From positions 5,182 to 69,181 of the forward strand of contig CAZGWJ010000002.1 in the NCBI GenBank assembly GCA_964529445.1: a stretch of 64,000 bases of DNA, read 5' to 3'. Each line of letters begins with the position of its first letter. Position 1 is the stretch's first letter. Of the stretch, positions 28,467-50,950 are shown one piece after another. Under the pieces are notes generated by a model that made no database searches, was not told the DNA's origin, and was given only the letters and a program-made list of their open reading frames with translations. The DNA comes from an uncultured bacterium. Lineage in GTDB: Bacteria > Oederibacteriota > Muellerivitia > Muellerivitales > Muellerivitaceae. The position numbers and the translations under genes are program-made.

Positions 28467-28529
28467 TATAAATCCGATCCACCCTTACCCCGACCCTCTC
28501 CCATCAAGGGAGAGGGGGAGACGCATGAA

Positions 28530-43581: not shown

Positions 43582-44046
43582 TCATTCGCCGCGGTGGTAG
43601 AAGAACATCGAACCCGGGTTCTCGGGCCGGTGTTGCAGGGTGCCCATGAGCGAGTCCAGCTTCTCCCAGAGCAGTTTGTCCGCATCGCCGCTTTTCTCGG
43701 GCGTGAGCATGCGCACCCAGGTGGGCTCGTCCTCCCAGCGGGGACGCGATTCACCCGTTTCGGTCTTCTGCCGCAACAGGTCCAGGACGTGCATCAGGGA
43801 GGAGGCCTGCCCGAGCCGCAGGCGCAGGTAGAGACCGTCGTTCCAGAAGAGGATGTCCAGCCACTCCACTTCGAGCATCTTCTGAAGCAGGAGCAGTGTC
43901 TGAAGCGTGCGGTGGGCGTTCTCCGGGAACGCCAGCCAGCTCTCTCCGCCGGCCGTCTTCAGGATCACCTCGTACACGAAACGGCTGCGTGCCGAATATC
44001 CTCCCGGCGCCTCTCTCGTCATCATCCATTCCAGTTTCGCGATCAT
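43582..44046 (-). CDS. hypothetical protein
   Basis: 154-aa ORF downstream of lexA. No recognisable domain. Confidence 0.4.
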   Translation of the reverse strand: MIAKLEWMMTREAPGGYSARSRFVYEVILKTAGGESWLAFPENAHRTLQTLLLLQKMLEVEWLDILFWNDGLYLRLRLGQASSLMHVLDLLRQKTETGESRPRWEDEPTWVRMLTPEKSGDADKLLWEKLDSLMGTLQHRPENPGSMFFYHRGE

Positions 44047-44288
44047 ATCGGGCCTCCTGAGCAGTATGTTGAATCAGTCATCTGGCGATGACTGTTTCGT
44101 GTCTTGCTCGCAAATCACCCTGCCGGAATTGCGAATATTGTTGTGATTCGCTCGAACCCCGTGGCCGCTGACGTGGTGCTGAAACGGTGTTTTCGGCACC
44201 ACGTTGGGTGTCATCAAGGTGTTGAAAAGAATACGTCTGTATGCCTCTCGCGAGCGTGAAAATCCCTTGGCGGGGCTTCACGGGGTTT

Positions 44289-44912
44289 TCAGCGGGGGGA
44301 AAAGACCCCCACCACGCGGCCGATGATGCGGAAATCGCGATCGGCCTCGACCGAGATGGGTTTGTATTTCGCGTTGGCCGGCTCCAGGAAAACCTTGGCG
44401 CCGGACTTTCGAAACGTCTTGACGGTGGCCTCGCCGTCCAGGAACGCCACCACGACGTCGCCGGGATCGGCGTGCGTCGTCTGGGCCACGATGACCTTGT
44501 CGCCCGGAAGGATGTGCGCGTCCACCATCGAGTCGCCCTTCACGTGCAGGGCGAAGAGGTTCTTGCGACCCCGCGCCATGTCGTGATCCACCACCATCGT
44601 GCCGTCGCGGTTCTCTTCGCACAGGATGGGCATACCGGCGGCTACGCGCCCGATCACGGGGATGGCCACGCCGACCGAGGAGTCCTCGGACAGCTTCAAA
44701 CCGCGCGCCGTGTGGTCTTCGCGCGAGAGGTATCCCTTTTCTTCGAGGGCGAGCAGGTGCTTGCGCGCGCTTTGCGGGGAGTTCCAATCGAAGTGACGCA
44801 TCACCTCGCGCACGGTGGGCGGGCGATGGTTCTCGTTGAAGTACTGTTGGACGTACTTCAAAACCTTCTGTTGGGACTCGGTCAGCTCTTCGTCGTCGAT
44901 CGGCGGCACCAT
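44289..44912 (-). CDS. lexA: LexA repressor
   Basis: Start at MVPPIDDEELTESQQKVLKYV (winged HTH). Peptidase S24 domain with AG cleavage site, catalytic S (GDSMVDA) and K (VKTFRKSG). Confidence 0.9.
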   Translation of the reverse strand: MVPPIDDEELTESQQKVLKYVQQYFNENHRPPTVREVMRHFDWNSPQSARKHLLALEEKGYLSREDHTARGLKLSEDSSVGVAIPVIGRVAAGMPILCEENRDGTMVVDHDMARGRKNLFALHVKGDSMVDAHILPGDKVIVAQTTHADPGDVVVAFLDGEATVKTFRKSGAKVFLEPANAKYKPISVEADRDFRIIGRVVGVFSPR

Positions 44913-44951
44913 TTCGGGCCTCCCTCTTTTCGTCTTGAAAAGAATACGGTT

Positions 44952-44965
44952 GTATACTAGTATAC
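44952..44965. promoter_or_regulatory. perfect 14-bp palindrome GTATACTAGTATAC in lexA-radC divergent promoter (candidate SOS box)
   Basis: Centred between the lexA start (44912, minus) and the radC start (45013, plus). Overlaps a TTGAAA -35 plus 17 nt plus TAGTAT -10 promoter for radC. Confidence 0.5.
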
Positions 44966-45012
44966 GCCTGTATCCTCTGTCAAGCCGAAAAACCGGGGAA
45001 AAGGAGCCTTCC

Positions 45013-45723
45013 ATGGTCACCGCCACCCTCGCCGAAAGCCCCCTGATGAGCGATCCCCACGCCGGACACCGTGCCCGCCTCAGGACCAAATACGCCCAGG
45101 CGGGGAAGGAAGCCCTCCAGGACTACGAGCTTCTGGAACTCCTCCTCACCTTCTCCATCCCCCATCGGGACACCAAGCCCTACGCCAAGCGGCTCCTGGC
45201 CGCTTTCAAGACCGTGCGCGCGACGCTGGAGGCCCCCCTGGCCGACCTCGAGGCCCTCGGGGGTTTGCCGCCGCAAAGCGCCATCCATATGAAGGCCGTG
45301 GGGGACCTTTTGCGCCTGGCGCGGGCCGAGGAATGGAAGCGGGGCCGCGTCATCGGGAGTCCCTCGGAAGTCGCCTCCTATCTAAGGGAAGAGATGGGCG
45401 CCTACGGCAAGGAGGTCTTCAGCGTGCTGTACTTGGACCAACGCAACCACCTGCTCTCCTGCGAGAAGGTGCAGGAGGGCACCGTGGACCAGACGGTCGT
45501 GTACCCCCGCGAGATCATGAAGCGGGCGCTGGACCTGAAGGCGACCGGGATGATCCTCGCGCACAACCATCCGGGCGGCAGTTTGGCCCCTTCCGACGCC
45601 GACCGGCAGTTGACGCATCAGATCCTGACGGCCGCGCGGGCCATGGGGCTGACGGTGCACGACCACCTCATTCTCACCGCGGAGGGGAGCTTCTCGTTCC
45701 GCCAAGCCGGGATGCTGGGTTGA
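45013..45723 (+). CDS. radC: RadC-family JAB/MPN-domain protein
   Basis: RBS AAGGAG. HhH-like N-domain. JAMM motif LAHNHPGGSLAPSDAD. Confidence 0.85.
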   Translation: MVTATLAESPLMSDPHAGHRARLRTKYAQAGKEALQDYELLELLLTFSIPHRDTKPYAKRLLAAFKTVRATLEAPLADLEALGGLPPQSAIHMKAVGDLLRLARAEEWKRGRVIGSPSEVASYLREEMGAYGKEVFSVLYLDQRNHLLSCEKVQEGTVDQTVVYPREIMKRALDLKATGMILAHNHPGGSLAPSDADRQLTHQILTAARAMGLTVHDHLILTAEGSFSFRQAGMLG

Positions 45724-45818
45724 TGCAAGGGATCGCGAAGCGATCCATCCAATCCCCCTCGCCCCCTGCGGGAGAGGGTAAGGGTGAGGGGTGTTTTGAG
45801 TCGTGGTGGTTTTCAGTC

Positions 45819-45964
45819 TAAGGTCACAAATTGTGACCTTTAACAGGACAAACGAATGAAAACGCAGTATTAGCAAGCCAATCTTGAGGTCACAATTTGT
45901 GACCTCAAGTTGGGAAAACGCAGGTTCAAGAGACAAGTCTTAAGGTCGCAAATTGCGACCTTAA
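45819..45964. promoter_or_regulatory. three spaced 19-bp palindromes AGGTCRCAAWTTGYGACCT upstream of ORF6N gene (operator/iteron-like)
   Basis: Cores at 45820-45838, 45886-45904 and 45942-45960. The last abuts the RBS/GTG start of the ORF6N gene. A fourth copy lies inside the gene (46187-46205). A variant GATATCGCAATTTGCGATATC lies at 47349-47369. Confidence 0.7.
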
Positions 45965-45979
45965 GGTCAGGAGGAAACG

Positions 45980-46525
45980 GTGAAAAAGGAACACAGGAAC
46001 GACAAGAACTTGTTCATCGGAGATTACATCCACATGATCCGAGGAAATCGAATCATGTTGGACGAGACCTTGGCATCGCTCTATGGAGTTTCAGTCAAAG
46101 TGTTGAATCAGCAGGTGAAAAGGAATAAGGAACGATTTCCGGACGATTTCATGTTCCGATTGACACCCGAGGAAACATCCATCTTGAGGTCGCAATTTGC
46201 GACCTCAAGATTATGGGGAGGCCGGAGGTATTCCCCTCTTGTGTTCACCGAGCAGGGCATCGCCATGCTCTCGAGCGTCCTCAAGAGCCCCCGGGCCATC
46301 CAGATGAACATCCACATCATGCGGGCCTTCGTGGCCATGCGTAAATACGCGATCACTCATGAGGACCTGGCCAAGCGCATCGACGAACTGGAAGGGAAGT
46401 ACGACGAGCAGTTCGCGGTGGTGTTCGAGGCGCTGAGGAAATTCTTCGAGGATCCTCCGCCGGACGACAAGAGGAAGATCGGTTTTCTCTCCGAGGAGCG
46501 CGCCCCCTACATCGTCTTCAACTGA
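45980..46525 (+). CDS. ORF6N/KilA-N-like (Rha/antirepressor-type) DNA-binding domain protein
   Basis: GTG start after AGGAGG. LYGVSVKVLNQQVKRNKERFPDDFMFRLT..GGRRYSPLVFTEQGIAMLSSVLKS matches the ORF6N domain. C-terminal coiled-coil region. Confidence 0.7.
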   Translation: MKKEHRNDKNLFIGDYIHMIRGNRIMLDETLASLYGVSVKVLNQQVKRNKERFPDDFMFRLTPEETSILRSQFATSRLWGGRRYSPLVFTEQGIAMLSSVLKSPRAIQMNIHIMRAFVAMRKYAITHEDLAKRIDELEGKYDEQFAVVFEALRKFFEDPPPDDKRKIGFLSEERAPYIVFN

Positions 46526-46639
46526 CCCCTCTCCCTCTCGCGGATCCTGATGGGATCTGTGCGAGCATTCTTCGCTCTCAGCTTGTGGCCTCGGGCGGCT
46601 CGATCCTCTCCCGTAATGGATTCGACCAAGCTCACCATC

Positions 46640-46820
46640 CACCGGAGAGGGAAGAAAAGGTAATCTCCCCTCCCCTGCTTGCGGGGGAGGGATCAAGGGA
46701 GAGGGGGTCTTGTCCGTGGTGGCTGTTACAAAGCAGTAAAACTAATACCCTCTCCCCTTGCGGGAGAGGGAGGGGCGAGGGGTGTCGTTCCATGTCCGTA
46801 GTAGCTGTTAGAAAGAGTTG
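46640..46820. repeat. two tandem copies of an about 80-bp composite REP-like element (CCCTCYCCC..GGGAGAGGG hairpin + GTCCGTRGTRGCTGTTAnAAAG tail)
   Basis: A related copy lies at 45765-45815, on the other side of the ORF6N gene. Confidence 0.6.
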
Positions 46821-46920
46821 ATGTTCTCTGTGTCTCCGCCCGCCATCGAATGCCTTCGATGACGAGGTCTCGCCAAAGGCGGACGTTTTCGTGGTTTATT
46901 TTAAGATCGAGAGGTGTGAC

Positions 46921-47313
46921 ATGCATTATTCCGAAAGCCGTTTGAGCGCCATCTGGAACGGGGTGGTCCTCTACAAGATGGACCGCGGCCGCTGGCCGAA
47001 GGACGACCAGGAACTGCTCCTCTTCGCGGCCCTCAAGGGCATCGATCTCGACGTGGACGGCTTCGAGTACCTGAGGTGGGAGGAGGGGAAGGACGGAGAA
47101 CTCGTCATCTCCTTCATCCTGCGTCCCCGGGAAGAGAAGGAATTGGCCGGTCGCATCCGCTTGCGTCTCTTGGGCGAGGGCGTGGTCGCCGATGCCATGC
47201 CGGTCACGGTGCGCATCCATTACACGCCCGAGAACCACAGGACCTATTGCCCCTGGCCGGGCTGTACTTTGAGCGTTCGCGAGGAGGTCCTCCCGGCGGC
47301 GAAAGCGTCGTGA
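46921..47313 (+). CDS. hypothetical protein
   Basis: Start MHYSESRL after GAGAGGTG. 131 aa, no recognisable domain. Confidence 0.4.
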   Translation: MHYSESRLSAIWNGVVLYKMDRGRWPKDDQELLLFAALKGIDLDVDGFEYLRWEEGKDGELVISFILRPREEKELAGRIRLRLLGEGVVADAMPVTVRIHYTPENHRTYCPWPGCTLSVREEVLPAAKAS

Positions 47314-47422
47314 TGGGCGTTGAGCCGACCGAAGTGAAAGGGTTTTGATATCGCAATTTGCGATATCAAGTTCCGGACATGGAGTGACCTTGACAAGGTG
47401 TCTCTAGTAGGAGACAATCTAT

Positions 47423-47755
47423 ATGGAAGCGATACCCAGGAAGTTCGAGAAGTACTACACGCCCGAAGGGCGCTCTCCTTTCGACGACTGGTTCCACGGC
47501 CTGAAGGATGCTTTCGGGAAGAGCCAGATCATCAAGCGTCTTCAAAGAGTGGAGGCGGGAACGCTGGGTCATACGGACAATGCGGGAGAAGGTGTCCAGG
47601 GCTTGAAGATCGATGTGGGTCCAGGTTATCGGGTCTATTTCGGTCAGCATGGCTCCGTGCTCGTTATCCTGCTATGTGGTGGCGAAAAACACAGGCAAGA
47701 CAGGGACATGGCGATCGCCAGAAGCTATTGGCGGGATTACAAGAGCCGAAAGTAG
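47423..47755 (+). CDS. type II toxin, HigB-like addiction-module killer protein (RelE/ParE superfamily, TIGR02683-like)
   Basis: GYRVYFGQHGSVLVILLCGGEKHRQDRDMAIARSYWRDY matches the 'addiction module killer protein' family. Followed by its antidote gene 16 nt downstream. Confidence 0.7.
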   Translation: MEAIPRKFEKYYTPEGRSPFDDWFHGLKDAFGKSQIIKRLQRVEAGTLGHTDNAGEGVQGLKIDVGPGYRVYFGQHGSVLVILLCGGEKHRQDRDMAIARSYWRDYKSRK

Positions 47756-47770
47756 CGAGGGAATGTCGCG

Positions 47771-48130
47771 ATGAAGAAGAGATCGGTGGTCCCGCCTTCG
47801 GGCGGAAGTCTCGACGAAACGGTCATCCGCGCCCTCAAGGAGGACGAGGGTTTTCGCATGGAGTATTTGAAGGATCTCCTGCAGGAAGAGGACGTGAAAT
47901 TGATGGCGATCGCTCTGCGGCCCCTGGTGGAGGCCCTAGGGGGGATCGGCAAGTTATCGAGCGAGACGGGATTGGGGCGACAGAGCCTGTATAAATCACT
48001 ATCGGGCAAAGTTCGTCCTGATTTCCCGACGCTTCTCAAGATCATCCACTTTGCGGGTTATGACCTGTCGGTCGATAGACGTCGCCCGTCCAAACGCCAT
48101 TCCAGGTCATTGGCCGGTTCTCGTTCGTGA
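47771..48130 (+). CDS. type II antitoxin, HigA-like addiction-module antidote (XRE HTH, TIGR02684-like)
   Basis: C-terminal HTH (LSSETGLGRQSLYKSLSGKVRPDFPTLLKIIHFAGYDL). Confidence 0.65.
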   Translation: MKKRSVVPPSGGSLDETVIRALKEDEGFRMEYLKDLLQEEDVKLMAIALRPLVEALGGIGKLSSETGLGRQSLYKSLSGKVRPDFPTLLKIIHFAGYDLSVDRRRPSKRHSRSLAGSRS

Positions 48131-48291
48131 GGAGGTAAAGTATGAAGAACAGTATTTTCGGAGTCATGGTGATCATCCGTGACGAGAATTATTACGCATC
48201 AATCACAAGTCCAGGAACCATATAACCTGTTTTCTCAAGCCGGATGGCATCCTGACAGCCAGTGAAAGGGTGACCATGAGTTGAAGGCAGC

Positions 48292-48585
48292 TTGATCGTG
48301 GAGAGTCCTGGTATGGATAAATGGAATGTCCTAGTCACCGAAGAGGCGGATCGTGAACTGGCTAAGGCGGTTCGGGAGAATCCGGACCTCAAACCCGACA
48401 TCCTGCTGAGGCTCGGGCTCCTGGCGGATTTTCCTCCTGAGAAATGGTTCTTCATTTCCCGGCATAAGGGATTGGACCTGTTCAGGGCCGAGACGGGACA
48501 GATGATCCGGATCTCGGGCCAAGCCGATCCCGGTACCCGGACCGTGCATATCACCCATATCCGGGTGATCCGGAGAGCCCGTTGA
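48292..48585 (+). CDS. putative RelE/ParE-fold toxin
   Basis: 97 aa. Pattern ..LFRAETGQMIRISGQADPGTRTVHITHIRVIRR resembles the RelE/ParE C-terminus (..yRiiY..d..k.v.Il.i.hR). Confidence 0.4.
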   Translation: MIVESPGMDKWNVLVTEEADRELAKAVRENPDLKPDILLRLGLLADFPPEKWFFISRHKGLDLFRAETGQMIRISGQADPGTRTVHITHIRVIRRAR

Positions 48586-48639
48586 CGATGTAATACATGT
48601 GTAATACAATCTATTTGACGGTCTATTCGGGAGGAACCC

Positions 48640-48954
48640 ATGCGCGCGATCATCAATTTCCGACCCAAGGTCGACCCGGCCACTTTGCGCAGGATCGCTG
48701 AAAAACAGAATTATCCCGACCTGTCCGGCTTCATCAATGACGCGATCGAGGAGAAGATCCGCAACATTCACGCCCATCCGCGCGACGAGAAACTGGTGAA
48801 CGACATCAAGAAAGCCGTCTATGAATTCAAGGGTTGGTCCTTCTCCAAGCCATCCGCCCGGGAAGCGGCGGAGATCCGCAAGAGGGCTGGTTCCGCCCGT
48901 TCCGGCAAGACAAGGACGATGCCCCTGAATGACGTTTTGAAGGAACTGACATGA
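48640..48954 (+). CDS. ribbon-helix-helix (CopG-like) protein, putative antitoxin
   Basis: N-terminal RHH (MRAIINFRPKVDPATLRRIAEKQNYPDLSGFINDAIEEKI). Own promoter with GTAATACA direct repeats. Confidence 0.5.
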   Translation: MRAIINFRPKVDPATLRRIAEKQNYPDLSGFINDAIEEKIRNIHAHPRDEKLVNDIKKAVYEFKGWSFSKPSAREAAEIRKRAGSARSGKTRTMPLNDVLKELT

Positions 48955-49547
48955 ACATCTCGATCATCCTGGGGCATCCCAAGCCCGGCAGTTTCAACCA
49001 TGCCATCGCCCGGACGGCGGCGGAGACCCTGAAAGCCAACGGACACCAGGTCGTCCTGCATGACCTTTGCGCGGAGGGGTTCGATCCGCTCCTGCCTCCC
49101 GCCGAACTCGCCAAGGGAGCCGTCCTCCCTGCCGACGTCCAGAAGCATTGCGATGAGATCGTGAAGGCCGACGGCATCATCATCGTGCATCCGAATTGGT
49201 GGGGACAGCCGCCTGCCATCCTCAAAGGGTGGGTGGACCGGGTCCTGCGCATGGGCGTGGCCTACACGTTCAAGGTGGGGGACAACGGGGAAGGGGTTCC
49301 CGTCGGGCTCCTGAAGGCGAAGAAGGCCCTGGTGTTCACGACGTCCAACACGCCCAGGGAGAGGGAGCGGGAGGTCTTCGGGGATCCGCTGGAAGCCCTG
49401 TGGGGCAAGTGCGTGTTCCCGTTCTGCGGGGTGGATTCTTTCGAGCGCCGCAATTTCGAGGTGGTGGTGGCCAGCACGGAGGAGGAGAGGAAGGGTTGGC
49501 TGGCGGAAGTACAGCAAAGAATTGAGAAGGCTTTCCCGAGGGTATAG
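48951..49547 (+). CDS. flavodoxin-like NAD(P)H-dependent oxidoreductase (Flavodoxin_2/MdaB-KefF-like)
   Basis: MNISIILGHPKPGSFNHAIA..VIVHPNWWGQPPAILKGWVDRVL matches NAD(P)H dehydrogenase (quinone) family. Confidence 0.75.
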   Translation: MNISIILGHPKPGSFNHAIARTAAETLKANGHQVVLHDLCAEGFDPLLPPAELAKGAVLPADVQKHCDEIVKADGIIIVHPNWWGQPPAILKGWVDRVLRMGVAYTFKVGDNGEGVPVGLLKAKKALVFTTSNTPREREREVFGDPLEALWGKCVFPFCGVDSFERRNFEVVVASTEEERKGWLAEVQQRIEKAFPRV

Positions 49548-50689: not shown

Positions 50690-50950
50690 TCACCCATCAC
50701 AGACCCTGAAGGGTCTGCGAGAACAACCGTCATCCTCAGCTTGTGGCTGAGGATGGTTCGGCCCTCTCCCTCAAGGGGAGAGGGGAAAAGGGGAAGGATA
50801 TGAAGCGGACGGCTTATAGAACCAGGAGAAGTAGGTCCCCCTCACCCTGGCCCTCTCCCACGGGGGGAGAGGGGAAGAGTATTAAGAAACAGGATAAGTA
50901 GGACCCCTCTCCCTAGCCCTCCCCCGCAAGCGGGGGAGGGAATTTGTGGG
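50690..50950. repeat. cluster of REP-like hairpins (CCCTCTCCC-N4-6-GGGAGAGGG; CCCTCCCCCGCAAGCGGGGGAGGG) plus other stem-loops
   Basis: At least three CCCTCTCCC..GGGAGAGGG copies. Also GACCCTGAAGGGTC and CATCCTCAGCTTGTGGCTGAGGATG hairpins. Confidence 0.6.

Follow-up and report, generated by a model that had tools for sequence, protein, structure and literature searches.

We analysed a 64-kb stretch of DNA from an uncultured bacterium of the Muellerivitaceae (contig CAZGWJ010000002.1), referred to here at its full length as the window. A gene in it that encodes an ORF6N-domain protein is preceded by three perfect palindromes and carries a fourth inside its coding sequence. The intragenic palindrome is a family-wide DNA element whose bases co-vary with residues of the predicted recognition helix of the protein encoded by the same gene. 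From this comparative evidence, the palindromes are probably double-stranded DNA operators for the ORF6N protein encoded at 45980–46525.

Palindromes upstream of and within an ORF6N gene

The pattern AGGTCRCAAWTTGYGACCT has exact matches at 45821–45839, 45887–45905, 45943–45961 and 46187–46205. Outside these four sites it has no match in the 64 kb, even with up to three mismatches. Shuffled sequence gives a mean of 0.03 matches, and four were reached in none of 100 shuffles. When the pattern is relaxed to its 13-nt core, one extra site is recovered, starting at 47351, and all five palindromes fall within 1.6 kb around the ORF6N gene. The palindromes and the gene are listed below.

45820–45840, unstranded: palindrome 1, 21 nt, perfect, class TCACAA; centre 45830, −150 from the start codon; predicted distal operator copy
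45883–45909, unstranded: palindrome 2, 27 nt, perfect, class TCACAA; centre 45896, −84 from the start
45939–45965, unstranded: palindrome 3, 27 nt, perfect, class TCGCAA; centre 45952, −28 from the start; abuts the ribosome-binding site; predicted proximal operator
46181–46211, unstranded: palindrome 4, intragenic, 31 nt, perfect, class TCGCAA; centre 46196, +216 from the start
47345–47369, unstranded: palindrome 5, 25 nt, perfect; core TCGCAATTTGCGA at 47351–47363; outer arms TTGATA/TATCAA, which differ from those of the others
45969–45974, plus strand: Shine-Dalgarno sequence AGGAGG of the ORF6N gene, read from sequence
45980–46525, plus strand: ORF6N-domain gene, 181 amino acids; predicted N-terminal winged-helix-like DNA-binding domain and long C-terminal helices

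A sequence-only reading of this DNA had described an array of 19-bp perfect palindromes around and inside the ORF6N gene. The array is real, given four exact matches where 0.03 are expected, and its members are perfect as stated but longer, at 21, 27, 27 and 31 nt. The reported spacings of 66 and 56 bp are the start-to-start distances that we measured between sites 1 and 2 and between sites 2 and 3; sites 3 and 4 are 244 nt apart, making the series irregular. The third copy had been placed at the ribosome-binding site and GTG start, and site 3 indeed ends 3 nt before AGGAGG, which is followed by the GTG at 45980. The fourth was correctly assigned to the coding sequence, where it occupies codons 68–78 (I68–L78) and encodes ILRSQFATSRL. 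The variant noted before a higBA-like gene pair is site 5. It has the 13-nt core of the other sites, TCGCAATTTGCGA, between different outer arms, and lies 54 nt upstream of a RelE/ParE-type toxin gene (47423–47755) that is paired with an HI1420-type antidote gene. A sigma-70-like promoter for this toxin-antitoxin pair lies 21 nt downstream of the site. Cores in the window are mixed, with TCAC in sites 1 and 2 and TCGC in sites 3–5.

As single-stranded DNA, the five sites are predicted to fold into hairpins of −8 to −13 kcal/mol (−8.1 kcal/mol with a z-score of −5.4 for site 1; −11.9 kcal/mol for site 2). None of the five is followed by the T run of an intrinsic terminator, and the only call, on the minus strand at site 3, is marginal. 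The G+C content is 44–52% over 45800–46400, which takes in the upstream palindromes and the 5′ half of the gene, compared with a background of 60–67%; in the toxin-antitoxin region (47.2–48.8 kb) it is about 55%.

The intragenic palindrome is conserved as DNA

Three samples of ORF6N genes were compared: 80 loci from one-genome-per-species contigs of many phyla, whose proteins share 45–60% amino-acid identity with the window protein; 80 metagenome loci of another large ORF6N subfamily; and 46 non-redundant viral homologues picked by protein similarity only. The position orthologous to site 4 is palindromic in all of the approximately 220 homologues examined, from genomes, metagenomes and viral contigs, except at one locus, L016. 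In the first sample the codons orthologous to LRSQFATS form a 27-nt palindrome, again with L016 as the sole exception, and in the viral sample the palindrome is present in 46 of 46 members.

The two arms have changed together. In an ungapped alignment of 86 intragenic sites from the 80 genomes and the window, with a 12-bp stem, 96.0% of cells are paired, compared with 78.8% in column shuffles, and the observed value was reached in none of 500 shuffles. Compensatory cells number 187, against 52 in the shuffles; changes on both sides are found at 9 of the 12 pairs, and slid registers leave at most 45% of cells paired. The compensation spans amino-acid boundaries, as in the codon pairs Ser (TCA)–Val (GTG), Ser (TCG)–Ala (GCG), Cys (TGC)–Gly (GGC), Tyr (TAC)–Gly (GGT) and Phe (TTC)–Gly (GGA). 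Likewise, some sites have Leu (TTG)...Ser (TCA) where others have Trp (TGG)...Ser (TCC).

The palindrome is read differently in the two subfamilies. In the first it is translated as L-R-S-Q-F/I-A/V-T-S. The second has the same core, GGTCRCAAWTTGYGACC, in the equivalent place and one base out of frame, where it is read as E-V/L-V-A/T-N-C-D-H/R-L/F. The 86 sites of the metagenome sample have the palindrome centre on codon position 2 in 63 cases and on position 1 in 23, all with at least 9 of 12 pairs, and the outer arms of the second subfamily covary, GAGGTGG...CCACCTC alternating with GAACTGG...CCGGTTC. Because the same core is read in two frames, the conserved unit, as judged from these alignments, is the DNA palindrome and not a peptide, and the 'conserved peptide motifs' are its translations. 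The same comparison indicates that the intragenic copy is ancestral to the ORF6N family, not an insertion, since virtually all homologues examined have it at that position, in one frame or the other.

In the window, the nine codons of site 4 are mostly rare synonymous choices (product of synonymous frequencies 5e-9), with frequencies in this genome of 11% for TTG, 11% for AGG, 8% for TTT, 2.4% for TCA and 2.5% for AGA. A codon-level test on the five close orthologues alone gave 4/6 against 28% (P = 0.07) and is suggestive only. In an AlphaFold2 model of the window protein (predicted local distance difference test score, pLDDT, 74.5), the palindrome-encoded peptide comprises a helix end and the lowest-confidence internal loop (residues 71–80, mean pLDDT 59), a position that fits weak constraint at the protein level.

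The palindrome centre, CAAWTTG, is AT-rich and invariant. Its central base, the sole asymmetric position, is A or T about equally often across the family, so that the codon specifies Ile or Phe. Among viral contigs of Bacteroidota type that are otherwise near-identical, the palindrome upstream of the ORF6N gene has A at its centre in one (L185:994) and T in two (L219:1444, L233:8367). In-frame tandem duplications of the palindrome module, 14–15 codons long, occur at seven loci (L026, L048, L070, L076, L149, L166 and L441), and the proteins show two or three LRSQxxTS-like repeats; L076 has three copies with a 42-nt period. In a few gene fragments (L130, L107 and L016) the break is exactly at the palindrome.

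Stable stems with strong covariation could also be formed in RNA. The palindromes would then be mRNA hairpins in the 5′ untranslated region and the coding region that control stability, processing or translation, and three of the window sites could fall in the leader, one touching the ribosome-binding site. The pairing, however, shows no tolerance for wobble: the 179 mismatches in 2076 pairs of 173 distinct sites comprise 56 G·T, 43 A·C and 80 of transversion type, and in the 86-site alignment G-U fills about 1% of cells and other mismatches 4%. Neither strand is favoured, and an Rfam scan of 44000–49000 returned only two chance-level matches with E ≤ 1. Co-variation with a DNA-binding helix, described below, is not expected of an RNA element. 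We consider RNA hairpins a highly improbable explanation.

Residues of the recognition helix co-vary with the site

By sequence, the window protein is a clear member of the ORF6N/KilA-N/Rha group of 'anti-repressor'-type phage regulators. It matches the Pfam ORF6N family PF10543 over residues 17–100 with 116.4 bits (cut-off 27.8, E = 7e-34), and its PHROG family (PHROG 4792) carries the label anti-repressor. In the AlphaFold2 model, a helix-turn-helix formed by helices 28–35 and 39–48 is followed by strands and by two long C-terminal helices (104–140 and 143–157). No solved structure matches the window protein by sequence. The second helix of the motif is the predicted recognition helix.

46094–46126, plus strand: predicted recognition helix, codons 39–49, VKVLNQQVKRN; K40, V41, Q44 and Q45 co-vary with the operator across the family

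Mutual information was calculated over 162 gene-site pairs, each protein column being compared with the bases of the site that the gene itself carries; half-site positions are numbered outward from the palindrome centre. Where position 4 is A, residue 44 is Gln in 56 of 58 pairs; where it is G, residue 44 is Glu in 60 of 67, residue 41 is Arg in 61 of 67 and residue 45 is Gln in 66 of 67; where it is C, residue 44 is Arg or Lys in 29 of 30. All 20 pairs with a G at position 5 have Arg44, and 110 of the 116 with a G at position 7 have Lys40. In terms of cores, TCAC is found with Gln44/Ala45, TCGC with Arg41/Glu44/Gln45, and a position-5 G with Arg44. Residues 40, 41, 44 and 45 share one face of the recognition helix, and the pairings follow chemical convention, Arg or Lys facing G, Gln facing A and Glu facing C. 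The code holds in both reading-frame subfamilies.

In the main subfamily, the mutual information of residue 44 is 1.47 bits, higher than that of the palindrome-encoded residues themselves. Columns outside the helix and the palindrome reach at most 0.61 bits, including variable columns that lie between the two, which is evidence against simple block linkage. In a neighbour-joining tree of the remaining protein sequence, we counted about 49 changes of the position-4 base and about 47 of the residue class; both change on 30 branches, compared with 7.2 expected (hypergeometric P ~1e-17). Because the tree is noisy, all of these counts are upper bounds. The code was replicated in 217 database proteins whose site class was inferred from the encoded peptide: Glu44 in 67 of 72 proteins of the CG class, Arg44-Gln45 in 60 of 60 of the GA class, Gln44-Gln45 in 27 of 27 of the TG class, Gln44 in 35 of 39 of the CA class and Arg44 in 8 of 8 of the GC class. 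It is also obeyed by 43 of the 44 centred sites among the viral homologues.

The window protein has a rare hybrid helix, V41-Q44-Q45. Close relatives with this helix carry an intragenic site of either class, TCAC or TCGC, which fits a helix that tolerates either purine at position 4. At L016, where the intragenic palindrome is lost, the helix is of the Arg44-Ala45 type and a GC-class palindrome stands just upstream of the start, the class that the helix predicts. These correlations suggest that the ORF6N protein most likely reads the palindrome through residues 40, 41, 44 and 45 at positions 4, 5 and 7.

The code also bears on whether the palindrome has any function in cis. It might be a frozen coding accident whose arms are kept perfect by template switching, a process that can perfect quasi-palindromes, with upstream copies that are decayed gene fragments; some upstream copies do end N-terminal gene fragments (L130 and L016). 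Such an accident leaves unexplained the code at residues 40/41/44/45, the same core in two reading frames and the conserved proximal site of the orthologues described below, and at L016 the upstream site has the helix-predicted class after the internal one was lost. We judge it very unlikely that the palindrome lacks a cis function.

Distribution and genomic context of the palindromes

A census of 692 kb, comprising the 160 loci and the whole window, found 222 elements of the palindrome class. Of these, 174 are in ORF6N genes, 28 precede an ORF6N start by no more than 400 nt, 3 come just past a stop and 17 are elsewhere; among the last, several belong to ORF6N genes that the search pattern missed or are unrelated palindromes. 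With 205 of 222 elements in or beside ORF6N genes, and five copies in the 64 kb of the window, the palindrome is, in the sequence scanned, not ubiquitous and unlinked to the family, the outcome that the sequence-only reading had named as fatal to its proposal. Upstream copies are present at about 20% of loci, one to three at each, and are mostly centred 20–100 nt before the start.

That reading had also offered a mini-MITE (miniature inverted-repeat transposable element) that landed in the gene, that is, a miniature mobile palindromic element of MITE or REP (repetitive extragenic palindromic) type that spread locally. Signs of local multiplication exist in the upstream arrays, in abutting 27-mers at two loci (L095 and L112) and in the in-frame tandem copies, and site 2, flanks included, is similar to copies in the coding sequence of other genes. 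A mobile origin is largely contradicted by the finding that about 220 homologues, from many phyla and in two reading frames, carry the intragenic copy at the orthologous place. The linkage of the elements to ORF6N genes and the confinement of the five window copies to 1.6 kb also speak against it, and neither target-site duplications nor a transposase were seen. A mobile element is, to us, scarcely credible as the source of the intragenic site.

Four syntenic orthologues, with 72–81% protein identity, share the gene order NYN, unknown, LexA, RadC, ORF6N and a 130-amino-acid open reading frame. Their upstream sites number 3, about 0 (a single degenerate remnant), 1 and 3, and the one closest to the gene is always centred −27 to −30 from the start (L355, L358 and L359). 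L355 has an orthologue of site 1 at −142, and its orthologue of site 2 has the core TTCC instead of TCAC, changed on both arms between conserved flanks. Site 5 is missing from this locus. The flanks conserved between the window and L355 include the block GAAAACGYAGTATTAGCAAG, which may hold a −10 element. In the window, the best-conserved non-palindromic stretch between sites 1 and 2 contains a possible −10 element of the ORF6N gene, suggested by sequence.

45868–45873, plus strand: TATTAG within the block GAAAACGCAGTATTAGCAAG (45858–45877); possible −10 element

In five related genomes the ORF6N gene is at a syntenic, chromosomal position between housekeeping genes. Across the 80 genomes, its neighbours are unrelated (161 Pfam families, none at more than three loci), which fits a self-contained module. 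Among 145 neighbours in these genomes there was no conserved partner gene such as a recombinase or a restriction-modification gene, and an att-site or shufflon model was dropped for want of one. An integrase adjoins the ORF6N gene only in some Bacteroidota elements. The idea that the palindrome is a recombination breakpoint was likewise set aside, only a handful of fragments ending there.

This context is relevant to the iteron array that the sequence-only reading had considered. A replication origin or iteron set bound by an initiator, comparable to the lambda origin in gene O or the pT181 origin in repC, would share with the ORF6N genes dyad-symmetric binding sites inside the binder's own gene, in a linker-coding segment, and some ORF6N genes have two or three tandem internal copies. 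Most have a single site, however, the spacing in the window is irregular (66, 56 and 244 nt), no replication genes are nearby, and the gene sits between chromosomal housekeeping genes. An origin of replication is thus most improbable here.

The module is also carried by mobile DNA of cultured hosts. A Legionella pneumophila conjugative plasmid (NZ_CP048619, L440) has an internal site and a second site 18 nt past the stop, and a Bacteroides ovatus plasmid (NZ_CP081918, L441) carries the element in the order integrase, ORF6N, JAB and ArdA; both obey the code. Plasmids of Sulfuricurvum kujiense DSM 16994, another cultured host, also carry homologues. In some loci (L440, 2181 and 2894; L007, 1209; L144, 2036) a second palindrome 18–25 nt past the ORF6N stop leaves the 3′ part of the gene between two sites. 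A JAB/RadC-family gene lies beside the ORF6N gene in the window (45015–45723) and in L441 (2796–4080), and an SSB gene is upstream at one locus (L007, 39–587). Such arrangements recall the leading regions of conjugative elements and are not enriched across the 80 genomes. ORF6N genes often occur as tandem paralogues with different cores (L014, L032, L064 and L118). Upstream of ORF6N genes, abutting 27-mers with different cores are spaced 26–28 nt apart (L095, 573–626; L112, 1398–1426).

A scan of viral contigs with the 17-nt core GGTCRCAAWTTGYGACC gave at least 120 matches, compared with 50 and 18 for two permuted control palindromes. Among the 120 matches listed (loci L167–L286), 97 have no ORF6N gene nearby, and many have A-run/T-run flanks like those of bidirectional terminators. 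The matches without an ORF6N gene may be chance matches, terminators or trans targets of ORF6N proteins.

A proposed self-encoded operator

The operator array that had been proposed for the encoded DNA-binding protein gains from two results: recognition-helix residues co-vary with the palindrome of their own gene, and the palindrome class is linked to ORF6N genes. As in an operator set, dyad-symmetric sites stand by the regulator's own start, at −150, −84 and −28, with the proximal one kept at −27 to −30 in orthologues, and the sequence of the site matches the specificity of the protein, as seen from co-variation in 162 + 217 + 46 members. Strong comparative evidence extends the proposal to a site that appears to be self-encoded, family-wide and co-evolving with its protein.

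We propose the following mechanism, in which we infer physical binding, dimerisation, the sign of regulation and the roadblock. The ORF6N protein would be a winged-helix-type binder, as predicted, and probably dimerises through its long C-terminal helices. In the dimer, the recognition helix (39–49) of each subunit would sit on one half-site, 5′-GGTCRCAA-3′, so that the two half-sites meet at the central A/T and the bound dyad covers 15–17 bp. One such operator would lie inside the protein's own coding sequence at +216, in a segment that encodes a loop and in which the DNA largely sets the amino acids. Negative autoregulation is the function that we consider most likely. Upstream binding would occlude initiation and binding at +216 would block elongation as a roadblock, to which promoter- or ribosome-binding-site-proximal sites would add where they are present. 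Autoregulation of this kind would keep a stand-alone, horizontally mobile regulator at a constant level behind any promoter, and the embedded site would keep protein and site linked through horizontal transfer into arbitrary contexts. Site 5 may place the toxin-antitoxin operon under the same control and is a possible trans target.

Several observations weigh against this proposal. Upstream copies occur in only about 20% of loci, which means that promoter-level autoregulation is not the universal role. The class of an upstream copy equals the intragenic class of the adjacent gene in only 9 of 31 cases, so that 'same protein, same site' was not confirmed for all upstream copies. A sigma-70 consensus scan of 45600–46000 found no promoter upstream of the ORF6N gene. 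The closest folds to the model, Dachshund/Ski winged-helix domains followed by MerR, RacA and MarR, are weak matches (E ~0.05–0.09), and the recognition code is a correlation. The outer arms are wholly different between the subfamilies and still complementary. Finally, symmetry extends to positions that the helix seems not to read: of 11 non-coding clade sites, 10 are symmetric at position 10 and 9 at position 13. At position 4, too, 10 of the 11 are symmetric, though the clade protein tolerates either purine there.

Foreign-class upstream sites may be read by other paralogues or may be weak sites, and cross-regulation among paralogues could explain them. Near-perfect symmetry at seemingly unread positions is not predicted by dimer binding alone. 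Two candidate explanations are a neutral template-switch bias and a requirement for a hairpin or cruciform form. Template switching at quasi-palindromes is a known mutational process that copies one arm onto the other.

The second candidate leads to a different reading, in which the element acts as an extruded hairpin or cruciform, or as a single-stranded-DNA hairpin. Each stem would be one half-site duplex, recognised by ORF6N or by a structure-specific factor, and the role would be recombination, replication or mobile-DNA entry rather than simple repression. The near-perfect complementarity over 12–13 bp, which includes freely varying positions that differ within one locus, is in line with such a structure. 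So are the AT-rich invariant centre CAAWTTG and the DNA hairpin energies of −8 to −13 kcal/mol, the gene fragments that end exactly at the palindrome, the in-frame duplications of the module, and the JAB/RadC neighbour of the ORF6N genes of the window and of B. ovatus, the latter gene standing between an integrase and JAB–ArdA. However, the chemically sensible helix code points to ordinary major-groove readout, and neither a recombinase nor a nuclease is a conserved neighbour in the 80 genomes. The tandem paralogues carry different cores, which is poor for recombination between them, and template switching could keep the arms perfect without any structural function. We therefore regard a hairpin or cruciform role as unlikely. 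More tentatively than the operator proposal, we also entertain a combined view: ORF6N and its palindrome would form a self-contained module, its site kept through a frame change and re-tuned dozens of times at residue 44 (Gln/Glu/Arg/Lys) together with 41 and 45, that acts on a hairpin or cruciform, the form that a further requirement for perfectly complementary arms would imply.

Surroundings of the ORF6N gene

The neighbours of the ORF6N gene in the window are LexA, RadC, the toxin-antitoxin pair and housekeeping genes. The LexA gene (44289–44936, minus strand) is divergent from the RadC gene (45015–45723, plus strand), an arrangement kept in L001, L355, L357 and L358. Three small plus-strand open reading frames (46921–47313, 48292–48585 and 48640–48954) have no match in Pfam, NCBIfam or PHROGs; the latter two may form another toxin-antitoxin-like pair. 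The 130-amino-acid open reading frame downstream of the ORF6N gene is kept at orthologous loci.

A separate, dispersed REP-like hairpin, CCCTCTCCC-N5-GGGAGAGGG, often with a GGGxGAGGGGTGT tail, has 10 strand-matches against 0.02 expected. Copies are at 28494–28516, 45756–45794, 46669–46691, 46748–46785, 50762–50784 and 50851–50873. They flank the ORF6N module on both sides and are also found upstream of the orthologues in L355 and L357.

Discussion

By analogy, the embedded site most resembles the lambda origin iterons in gene O and parS in spo0J, and in function the operator set of an autoregulator. Phage lambda gene O contains four regularly spaced iterons and an AT-rich region that serve replication. 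As there, dyad sites in ORF6N genes lie inside the binder's own coding sequence, in a poorly constrained linker segment, and sites and DNA-binding domain co-vary among relatives. The ORF6N genes differ in that they usually have one site, without a replication context, and encode a different fold, and in that the site is read in two frames. In the ParB/Spo0J system, a parS palindrome lies inside spo0J; the protein spreads in a cytidine triphosphate-dependent manner, has many origin-proximal sites and works with a ParA partner. The likeness is a palindromic site for a DNA-binding protein within that protein's gene. For ORF6N, neither a ParA-type partner nor such a distribution of sites is seen among the neighbours in 80 genomes. 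Compared with both lambda O and spo0J, ORF6N is thus distinct in fold, context, site number, perfect symmetry and two-frame reading. RacA, which binds ram sites, shares a winged helix-turn-helix and a long coiled coil with the predicted ORF6N architecture and is also one of the weak fold matches of the model.

The upstream sites recall the operators of phage CI/Cro, of antitoxins and of C proteins with their C-boxes. In these systems, too, a small dimeric helix-turn-helix protein (predicted as such for ORF6N) has palindromes upstream of its own gene, and the proximal site overlaps the region where translation or transcription starts. Their operators are intergenic and imperfect, whereas the universal ORF6N site is intragenic, perfect over up to 31 nt and probably conserved in thousands of members of the family. 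Rickettsia palindromic elements and in-frame MITEs similarly place translated palindromic DNA in a tolerant protein loop. The Rickettsia elements are dispersed in unrelated genes; the ORF6N site, in contrast, is fixed in one family and co-evolves with its DNA-binding helix.

ORF6N proteins are very common in bacteria, plasmids and phages, with at least 8000 significant matches per protein search, and are annotated only as 'anti-repressor' or 'DNA-binding protein'. In the accessible parts of the literature searched, the domain is mentioned in passing as a regulator, with no binding site, target or mechanism given for it, and the parts that concern KilA-N, palindromes and operators contained nothing relevant. 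If the proposal is true, the target of each ORF6N member would be readable directly from its own gene, and the family would offer a natural, repeatedly evolved residue-to-base code and orthogonal repressor-operator pairs. Action on a hairpin or cruciform, for example on single-stranded or supercoiled mobile DNA, would, if true, be a mode not described for this fold. LRSQFATS and VVANCDHL are one DNA sequence read in two frames, which warns against reading conserved motifs as protein function. A self-encoded site, if true, would be a clean case of selection at the DNA level that sets a 'conserved protein motif' and is carried along in horizontal transfer.

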